Shown here one piece after another: positions 3,001-6,000 of a stretch of DNA of 64,000 nt. Made by a program: the position numbers. Every line of letters starts with the position of its first letter. Position 1 is the first letter of the stretch. The stretch lies in NCBI RefSeq assembly GCF_045037415.1, contig NZ_CP173438.1; one strand, given 5' to 3'. This stretch comes from Escherichia coli. GTDB taxonomy: Bacteria; Pseudomonadota; Gammaproteobacteria; Enterobacterales; Enterobacteriaceae.

Positions 3001-6000
3001 ACTATAACATGCCTTATAGTCTTCGGAACATCATCGCGCGCTGGCGATGATTAATAGCTAATTGAGTAAGGCCAGGATGTCAAACACGCCAATCGAGCTT
3101 AAAGGCAGTAGCTTCACTTTATCTGTGGTTCATCTGCATGAGGCAGAACCTAAGGTTATCCATCAGGCGCTGGAAGACAAAATCGCTCAGGCCCCCGCAT
3201 TTTTAAAACATGCCCCCGTTGTACTCAACGTCAGTGCACTGGAAGACCCGGTAAACTGGTCGGCGATGCATAAGGCGGTTTCGGCAACTGGTTTGCGGGT
3301 TATTGGCGTAAGTGGCTGCAAAGATGCGCAACTTAAAGCCGAAATTGAAAAGATGGGGCTGCCTATCCTGACGGAAGGAAAGGAAAAATCGCCGCGTCCA
3401 GCCCCCGCACCGCAGGCTCCAGCGCAAAATACAACGCCGGTCACAAAAACGCGTTTAATTGATACCCCAGTGCGTTCCGGTCAGCGTATTTATGCTCCAC
3501 AATGTGATCTGATTGTTACAAGCCACGTTAGCGCAGGGGCCGAATTGATTGCCGATGGTAACATTCATGTCTATGGCATGATGCGCGGTCGTGCGCTGGC
3601 AGGGGCAAGTGGTGACCGGGAAACGCAAATATTTTGTACGAACCTGATGGCGGAACTGGTGTCCATCGCAGGTGAATACTGGCTGAGTGATCAAATCCCA
3701 GCAGAATTTTATGGCAAAGCGGCACGACTGCAGTTAGTCGAAAACGCTTTGACCGTTCAACCGTTAAATTGATCCCTTTTTAACAAGGAATTTCTATGGC
3801 ACGCATTATTGTTGTTACTTCGGGCAAAGGGGGTGTTGGTAAGACAACCTCCAGCGCGGCCATCGCCACTGGTTTGGCCCAGAAGGGAAAGAAAACTGTC
3901 GTGATAGATTTTGATATCGGCCTGCGTAATCTCGACCTGATTATGGGTTGTGAACGCCGGGTCGTTTACGATTTCGTCAACGTCATTCAGGGCGATGCAA
4001 CGCTAAACCAGGCGTTAATTAAAGATAAACGTACTGAAAATCTCTATATTCTTCCGGCATCGCAAACTCGCGATAAAGATGCCCTCACCCGTGAAGGGGT
4101 CGCCAAAGTTCTTGATGATCTGAAAGCGATGGATTTTGAATTTATCGTTTGTGACTCCCCGGCAGGGATTGAAACCGGTGCGTTAATGGCACTCTATTTT
4201 GCAGACGAAGCCATTATTACCACCAACCCGGAAGTCTCCTCAGTACGCGACTCTGACCGTATTTTAGGCATTCTGGCGTCGAAATCACGCCGCGCAGAAA
4301 ATGGCGAAGAGCCGATTAAAGAGCACCTGCTGTTAACGCGCTATAACCCAGGCCGCGTAAGCAGAGGTGACATGCTGAGCATGGAAGATGTGCTGGAGAT
4401 CCTGCGCATCAAACTCGTCGGCGTGATCCCAGAGGATCAATCAGTATTGCGCGCCTCTAACCAGGGTGAACCGGTCATTCTCGACATTAACGCCGATGCG
4501 GGTAAAGCCTACGCAGATACCGTAGAACGTCTGTTGGGAGAAGAACGTCCTTTCCGCTTCATTGAAGAAGAGAAGAAAGGCTTCCTCAAACGCTTGTTCG
4601 GAGGATAAGTTATGGCATTACTCGATTTCTTTCTCTCGCGGAAGAAAAACACAGCCAACATTGCAAAAGAACGGTTGCAGATTATTGTTGCTGAACGCCG
4701 TCGCAGCGATGCAGAACCGCATTATCTGCCGCAGTTGCGTAAAGATATTCTTGAGGTCATTTGTAAATACGTACAAATTGATCCTGAGATGGTAACCGTA
4801 CAGCTTGAGCAAAAAGATGGCGATATTTCTATTCTTGAGCTGAACGTGACCTTACCGGAAGCAGAAGAGCTGAAATAAGCCCCCTGTAAAAGCGCATTTA
4901 TCTTCAAGGCAGAGTCATCTCTGCCTTGAGTTTTTCATCCCTCTCATCCACGTTGTGGTAAAGCGGCGAGTATTCTTGCTGATACTACTCATTGCTATTT
5001 CCCCCCCCTTTACACCTTAAGGCTGTTCCCACGCACAGAACAAAATGTTTACGCCTGGTTGAGTAAATAACCTTATTGTTAGCATGGGTATCCAGGGAGA
5101 TGATAACCCGCAATTTCATTATTCATTGTTCTCCAATAGGATGAGGTTTCCCGCCGTAACTGGCGGGCTTTTTTTGCCCCAGAATTTTCCCTTTTAGCAC
5201 CCTGTAAACGAAAACAGCGCCGAAACGCAGTTAATCGTTGATGGTCAGAACGGCCAGTTCACACCGGCCACCGCATTCCACGGGGACTCCACACCGGCAC
5301 CACGGTTATACCCACCCCGAGATGCCCGCTTAACATACTGCTGAATGAGGCTTTAATACCTGCCTGGTATATTCCACGTCTGCCCGACAAATCATTGACA
5401 AAATTACCGTCACTATTCACCTTCACCCGGTTATCATCGACAAATTCTTTGCGCACAGCCGCCTTCAGCCAGGGTTCAATTTCCATACCGTTCCCCAGAC
5501 GCATGTTGTAGCTCAGCGTTGCGCCCAGTTCACGATATATACTGCGGGTATCGACTGATTTCGATTCCATGCATTGGATAAATGATAGTAGCGTCTAAGT
5601 GACCTTAGCTCTGCTGCAACATCAGCCCGCAGGCACCAGACCAGGGGATTCATCCTGAAGAGACAGCGCAAATGTATTGTGTTCACCGCTCATCAAAGAC
5701 ATCATGATGAAATGATGATATCCCGTATAAGAAAGAGGCATTTTTTAAACGCAGTGCGCTGAAGTGTTGTTGGATAAAAAACACTCTTTTCTGATAATAC
5801 TGTCGTACGCTTATTTTTCGACAATGAGGCCGTCCACAAAATAAAATGACTAATGTAATCGTTGCTAATGAATATCTTCTGCTCACATAACAATCACACA
5901 ATAATATTGATAAATCAGATTATCTTACCTTTACAACATTGTATTAACAGCCAATGACACTTCTTGAATAAAAATATTGTCAATCAATGAGTTATTTCTC

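Follow-up and report, generated by a model that had tools for sequence, protein, structure and literature searches.

We examined a stretch of 64,000 nt of Escherichia coli DNA (contig NZ_CP173438.1, assembly GCF_045037415.1; this whole stretch is called the window below) in which the minCDE operon lies on the + strand; K-12 MG1655 carries the same minCDE region in reverse orientation. Past minE, the sequence continues with a 380-nt spacer, followed by the ycgI pseudogene, ymgJ, ymgI, ymgG and ymgD. The subject of this analysis is a hairpin within the spacer, in the orphan region (4936–5258) that begins after the terminator of minE itself. An initial annotation had described it as a strong GC hairpin with a T-tract at 5150–5176, about 270 nt past minE and without a long open reading frame (ORF) upstream on its strand, and had proposed that it ends either a small RNA (sRNA) or a short peptide gene. 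Our analysis favours the sRNA: on balance, the hairpin appears to form the 3′ end, and the part that binds Hfq, of an uncharacterised sRNA restricted to Escherichia that is encoded on the minE strand and accumulates in stationary phase. The features on which this reading draws are as follows.

5060–5079, + strand: conserved island I (TGAGTAAATAACCTTATTGT), in which K-12 and E. albertii agree at 18/21 positions, against 43–63 % identity in the flanks
5089–5094, + strand: possible −10 element in the alignment, TATCCA in the window; the majority of E. coli have TATACT, and E. albertii has CATTCT
5110–5149, + strand: invariant U/A-rich segment (GCAAUUUCAUUAUUCAUUGUUCUCC(C/A)AUAGGAUGAGGUUU), candidate seed and Hfq-contact region
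5150–5167, + strand: terminator stem-loop, CCCGCC-GTAACT-GGCGGG
5169–5175, + strand: U7 tract forming the RNA 3′ end, equivalent to K-12 1223978–1223984 (− strand)

The hairpin region reads CCCGCCGTAACTGGCGGG CTTTTTTTG and starts 272 nt 3′ of the minE stop codon. Its stem is a perfect 6-bp helix with five or six G-C pairs (seven pairs when a G-T is included), which folds alone at −11.8 kcal/mol and is followed directly by C and T7. A strict search pattern, requiring a perfect stem of 6 bp with no fewer than 5 GC, a loop of 3–8 nt and, within 1 nt, six or more T in 7, found six distinct sites on both strands of the window, as against 0.2 per 64 kb in first-order Markov randomisations, a rate that corresponds to about 0.001 sites expected by chance in the 323-nt interval. 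The initial description of the hairpin was thus sound, as was its remark on coding capacity, the longest + strand ORFs upstream being no longer than 37 amino acids. The same hairpin is present in K-12, and the E. albertii version differs by one stem-end change and carries T8. Since the stem on the opposite strand is followed by AAACCTCATCC, which has no U-tract, the terminator works in one direction only, on the + strand. With a GC-rich stem-loop, an immediate U-tract and in vivo 3′ ends within that tract in published K-12 tables, the hairpin and U7 constitute a working one-way intrinsic terminator.

This terminator is one of three in the spacer, the flanking two belonging to the genes on either side.

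4612–4878, + strand: minE, with its stop codon at 4876–4878
4903–4930 (span to 4935), + strand: intrinsic terminator of minE, a 12-bp stem followed by TTTTT
5204–5230 (hairpin 5215–5230), − strand: terminator of the convergent autotransporter gene (ycgI), in K-12 CTGCGC-TTCG-GCGCAG followed by TTTTCGTTT
5259–5570, − strand: ycgI, a pseudogene and C-terminal remnant of an autotransporter β-barrel gene, convergent with minE
about 5702–5893, − strand: ymgJ, beyond ycgI
5987–6160, + strand: ymgI, beyond ycgI, with ymgG and ymgD also on the + strand

The terminator of minE, which forms the 5′ boundary of the orphan region, coincides with strong Term-seq 3′ ends at K-12 1224224/5 (− strand) under three conditions (Adams et al. 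2021, PMC7815308). As minE has this terminator of its own, the hairpin at 5150 is a second and separate one, and the description of it as an orphan holds even though the minE terminator at 4903–4930 had been overlooked. The order of minE, orphan and ycgI terminators, with the 5150 hairpin in the middle, is kept in E. albertii, where minE ends in a very strong terminator with a 15-pair stem and a long T-run. In K-12 as in E. albertii, the ycgI terminator is a perfect stem capped by a UUCG loop, whose outer pair shows a compensatory A-T to G-C double change in E. albertii. In the window lineage it has a 1-nt deletion and is weakened by two stem substitutions (−22.8 kcal/mol in the K-12 context vs −15.7 in the window), which would fit decay that set in once the gene was a pseudogene.

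Conservation singles out the orphan terminator together with the sequence immediately upstream of it. In an alignment of six sequences (five diverse E. coli and E. albertii), the block at 5110–5167, which extends from GCAATTTC to the end of the 3′ arm of the hairpin, has 57/58 positions in common between K-12 and E. albertii, whereas identity is 43 % in the upstream spacer, 63 % in the segment just before the block and 32 % over the 40 nt past the T-tract. For scale, third-position divergence between the two species is 28 % in minE and 17 % in minD. Among the five E. coli, a single column varies in the block, compared with 31/132 in the upstream spacer. The contrast persists at the level of the species: a 66-nt version of the block matches K-12 exactly in 4145/5309 E. 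coli records (78 %), the others being 95–99 % identical, while over the whole spacer most E. coli genomes are only 90–95 % identical to the window. The candidate seed and terminator thus form a module conserved above the neighbouring non-coding DNA, as in sRNAs. Because the conserved pieces (the three terminators and the block) lie between spacers that have diverged freely, the pattern points to selection on the block itself rather than recent transfer, insofar as sequence comparison can tell. With the last ~60 bases identical in the sister species, what ends here is probably a young regulatory sRNA and not a peptide gene.

Published K-12 data place an Hfq-bound transcript end at this hairpin; all of these transcript data are from K-12 and not from the window strain. 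Bar et al. 2021 (PMC8175672, Table S1), in a re-analysis of the Hfq RIL-seq data (RNA interactions read out by ligation followed by sequencing) of Melamed et al. 2016, list an entry named minE.ycgI.IGR with 12 chimeric fragments and one partner in exponential phase, and 137 chimeric fragments, five partners and an SIC of 0.8 (S=1.0) in stationary phase. An SIC of 0.8 with k=5 implies that it invariably takes second place in the chimera, the position that sRNAs occupy. The table gives 7 for the longest U-tract nearby and 0.276 for the sRNA score, against a candidate cut-off of 0.1; the verified sRNAs AllZ and FadZ scored 0.295 and 0.202, respectively (PMC8175672), and minE.ycgI.IGR was neither tested nor discussed in that paper. 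Within the spacer, a U7 occurs only at the orphan hairpin, the minE terminator having U5. A 2025 preprint using Hfq iRIL-seq (PMC12262471, file 10) reports a tktA-leader::minE.ycgI.IGR chimera (7 fragments, p=0.0016) and a valV::minE.ycgI.IGR chimera (6 fragments), with about 412 further fragments involving minE.ycgI.IGR. The RNA2 read starts of this entry fall at 1223978–1223983 (− strand) (PMC12262471), which we checked to lie inside the K-12 U-tract (1223978–1223984, − strand), indicating that transcripts end in the U-tract and are bound by Hfq. Physical association with Hfq is therefore documented in K-12 by both RIL-seq and iRIL-seq immunoprecipitation. Absence of a transcript ending at this position had been named as the observation that would overturn the annotation, and these 3′ ends show that such a transcript exists.

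The element is restricted in distribution. By BLAST, the spacer is present in 5316/5426 complete E. coli genomes (~98 %) at a median of one place per genome, and is therefore a single-copy chromosomal locus and not a multi-copy repeat of the REP/BIME/ERIC type or the end of a mobile element; the few 'plasmid' matches are non-mobilizable, chromosome-like records, and a BLAST search against phages returned no match. A scan of 4000–7000 against Rfam 15 gave no covariance-model match over 5060–5180, even at E values up to 10. We also built a covariance model (R1) from the six aligned sequences, which found one copy in the window and no further copies elsewhere in a 682-kb search. When regions downstream of minE from 80 Enterobacteriaceae species were searched with R1 and with blastn (word size 7), the element was found only in E. 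albertii and was absent 3′ of minE in 78 other species. E. albertii carries both the element and the autotransporter gene, while other Escherichia clades run from minE through a ymgI-like region to ymgG with neither. Some strains retain an intact autotransporter gene of 3.4–4.7 kb with the same stop codon and the same spacer, and the block is equally conserved there. Judging from the genomes compared, the element belongs to the autotransporter islet and not to minE, and occurs only where the islet does.

The minE–ymgI interval is itself a hotspot of structural variation, of which we saw four forms: an intact autotransporter gene; a 344-bp remnant (K-12 and the window); a clean deletion from just past the minE terminator to ymgI (one strain, E. 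coli FEX669); and, in other Escherichia clades, an unrelated spacer of ~300 nt with a different minE terminator. In strains with an intact autotransporter gene (strain 2900), ymgJ and a hypothetical ORF of 39 amino acids lie directly upstream of it on the same strand, so ymgJ may be part of the autotransporter leader or operon. In a strain identical to the window across the 381 nt compared, ymgJ is annotated as frameshifted.

Taken as an sRNA, the candidate would work as follows. Rightward-moving RNA polymerase would stop in the U-tract at 5169–5175, and the hairpin and U-tail would bind the proximal face of Hfq, as those of other enterobacterial sRNAs do. The U/A-rich, single-stranded stretch upstream, which contains a CUCC motif resembling an anti-Shine–Dalgarno sequence, would be the likely region of pairing with mRNAs. 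Its 5′ end, its targets and their regulation in trans we only infer. Three 5′ ends are possible. Most E. coli carry TATACT 55 nt ahead of the hairpin, and this site (5089–5094) may be the −10 element of an independent promoter, weakened in the window lineage, from which an RNA of ~79 nt could start. Alternatively, island I may be included: RNAalifold pairs AACCUUAUU in island I with AUAGGAUGAGGUU at the end of the block, closing a long hairpin, and this pairing implies an RNA of at least 107 nt. Island I would then serve as the 5′ arm of a long helix whose other arm is 5134–5146; otherwise it may be a promoter-proximal element. Finally, processing of minCDE read-through by an RNase might leave an RNA of ~60–66 nt.

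Several observations weigh against the sRNA. No σ70 consensus promoter was found upstream of the hairpin in scans of the window, K-12 and E. albertii, and the RNAalifold alignment gives no covariation support for structure beyond the terminator. In the window lineage, one nucleotide is deleted, C is replaced by A within the block and TATCCA stands in place of TATACT. The only named mRNA partner, the tktA leader, is predicted to pair over its Shine–Dalgarno sequence and AUG, but 44 % of shuffles do as well as the local duplex (−16.3 kcal/mol), and the pairing is significant neither as a long nor as a local duplex; predicted pairing with the ymgJ/autotransporter leader is likewise not significant. 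Any RNA with a hairpin and a long U-tail can be captured on Hfq. Term-seq under three conditions lists no end at 122397x/122398x (Adams et al. 2021, PMC7815308), suggesting that the RNA is scarce in total RNA. In the literature searched, we found neither a northern blot nor a transcription start site or phenotype for it, and no main text mentions minE.ycgI; the nitrogen-starvation RIL-seq supplements do not list minE.ycgI, and the Cappable-seq supplement has no rows for the orphan region. The proposal that the hairpin ends an sRNA nonetheless finds support in the Hfq RIL-seq and iRIL-seq 3′ ends within the U-tract and in the 57 invariant nucleotides, even though Term-seq lacks the end.

The other half of the initial proposal, a short peptide gene ending at the hairpin, was not borne out, and we rejected it, as no ORF is conserved across lineages on either strand. 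Its best form would have the hairpin terminate the mRNA of a very small protein, which in K-12 would be the 18-amino-acid MDILGDDNPAISLFIVLP with a TAG stop 11 nt before the hairpin. A similar in-frame ORF exists in E. albertii (VDILRNDIPAISLFIVLP), its stop also just before the terminator, and we judge this form of the idea very doubtful. With third positions in minD and minE diverged by 17–28 %, zero synonymous change over ~12 codons is improbable, though it could occur. Against a peptide, the invariance runs on through the non-coding hairpin. A 1-nt deletion frameshifts the ORF in the window lineage (~565 records at least 99 % identical to the window allele), the ATG start codon reads ATT in strain E400634, and there is no Shine–Dalgarno sequence at a workable distance. 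No gene is present here in either the RefSeq or the EcoCyc-derived annotation of K-12, both of which include small proteins from ribosome profiling; RefSeq places no feature of any kind in the minE–ycgI spacer of K-12 or of thousands of matching E. coli records. Open frames differ between strains. The spacer C-runs at 5007–5014 and 5103–5105 (+ strand) vary (CCCCCCCC vs CCACCTCCCCC, and CCC vs CCCC), and these length differences disrupt each of the candidate small ORFs on both strands. The small proteins of the ymgI/ymgJ kind that had been expected nearby are both real, but they lie beyond the ycgI pseudogene, 550–800 nt from the hairpin, and are unrelated to it. A hypothetical gene, UTI89_C1358, lies in the minE–ycgI spacer (4936–5258). 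In a cell-sorting screen, DNA reaching from minC through the spacer and the ycgI homologue was enriched in filamentous cells, an enrichment that, according to the authors, may only reflect linkage to minC (PMC6206680).

Among non-coding alternatives, the main rival is that the hairpin serves only as a back-up or insulator terminator, stopping polymerases that have passed the minE terminator ahead of a collision with the convergent autotransporter gene or of antisense transcription into it, and that the Hfq signal comes from read-through 3′ ends caught incidentally. We consider this unlikely. Such a role would suit a position between convergent genes and 3′ of a terminator with only T5, and would agree with the low abundance and the lack of a promoter consensus upstream; however, a hairpin and T-tract would suffice for it, yet the 40 nt upstream are invariant where true spacers are 32–43 % identical. 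The element is also kept in E. albertii despite the very strong minE terminator there, and it accompanies the autotransporter islet and not minE. It is improbable, too, that the block is a neutral relic without present function, left over as the 3′ end of a gene that disappeared during acquisition or decay of the islet: the RNA is produced and associates with Hfq, and adjoining neutral sequence has diverged between species and varies within E. coli where the block has not, although there is decay all around it (the ycgI and ycgH pseudogenes, the frameshifted ymgJ and the deletion variant). The most improbable of the explanations is that of an attenuator, in which the hairpin would be a premature terminator in a long + strand leader running across ycgI toward ymgI-ymgG-ymgD, and the short RNA the terminated leader. 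The three genes do lie on the + strand, and + strand RNA antisense to ycgI exists downstream and pairs with ArcZ; in strains with an intact autotransporter gene, however, the hairpin would be more than 4 kb from ymgI and the leader antisense to the whole gene, and the block is equally conserved.

The antisense RNA is an observation in its own right. RIL-seq data (PMC12262471, file 9) contain 43 chimeras of 'ycgI.AS' (K-12 1223696–1223709, − strand) with the sRNA ArcZ. The ArcZ seed is predicted to pair with UUGCGCACAGCCGCCUUCAGCCAGGGU (window ~5442–5476, + strand, antisense to ycgI) at −28.7 kcal/mol, a value reached by 0.4 % of shuffles, and the pairing site is identical in K-12 and the window. 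ycgI.AS could be an unannotated target or sponge of ArcZ, possibly within a long ymgI-ymgG-ymgD leader.

In its fullest form, the sRNA reading holds that this is a genuine young Hfq-dependent regulatory sRNA confined to E. coli and E. albertii, which came in with, or originated within, an autotransporter islet inserted beside the min operon, which persists even where the autotransporter gene is now a 344-bp pseudogene, and whose stationary-phase targets would be core-genome mRNAs; the tktA leader is one published chimera partner. We advance this version tentatively, its chances being a little short of even. If it is true, an islet-borne sRNA has survived the death of its islet. No bacterium is better annotated than E. 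coli K-12, but this conserved, Hfq-bound RNA end has neither a gene name nor an Rfam family. Validation would add one sRNA to the E. coli regulatory network and provide a clean example of a lineage-specific sRNA outliving its horizontally acquired companion gene. The practical value is modest, as this is one more candidate of a well-understood class and already an unnamed row in published supplementary tables.

Compared with known systems, the hairpin resembles bidirectional terminators in lying between convergent transcription units, but it lacks an opposite-strand U-tract, and each of the convergent genes has a terminator of its own. The small proteins YmgI and YmgJ are encoded in the same islet between minE and ymgG, though no conserved ORF ends at the hairpin. 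A closer parallel is offered by sRNAs derived from 3′ untranslated regions that were first seen as 'IGR' or 'EST3UTR' entries (SdhX, FliX from fliC.fliA.IGR, UhpU, MalH, AllZ and FadZ; PMC8175672): the candidate appears in the same table with the same features and in the same score range, and could be processed from minCDE read-through. Such sRNAs share the terminator of their parent mRNA, whereas the minE terminator is separate and lies 220 nt upstream, and the candidate is tied in evolution to the neighbouring islet and not to minE. Set beside the intergenic Hfq-dependent sRNAs CyaR, MgrR, RybB and McaS, it is far scarcer (137 chimeric fragments vs thousands; score 0.276), is confined to E. 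coli and E. albertii, is absent from Rfam and the RefSeq annotation, and differs in being known without a mapped promoter or 5′ end, a northern blot or a validated target. Like them, it combines a GC hairpin and at least 6–7 U with a U/A-rich, single-stranded stretch upstream, is recovered with Hfq, is always second in RIL-seq chimeras and gives more signal in stationary phase.

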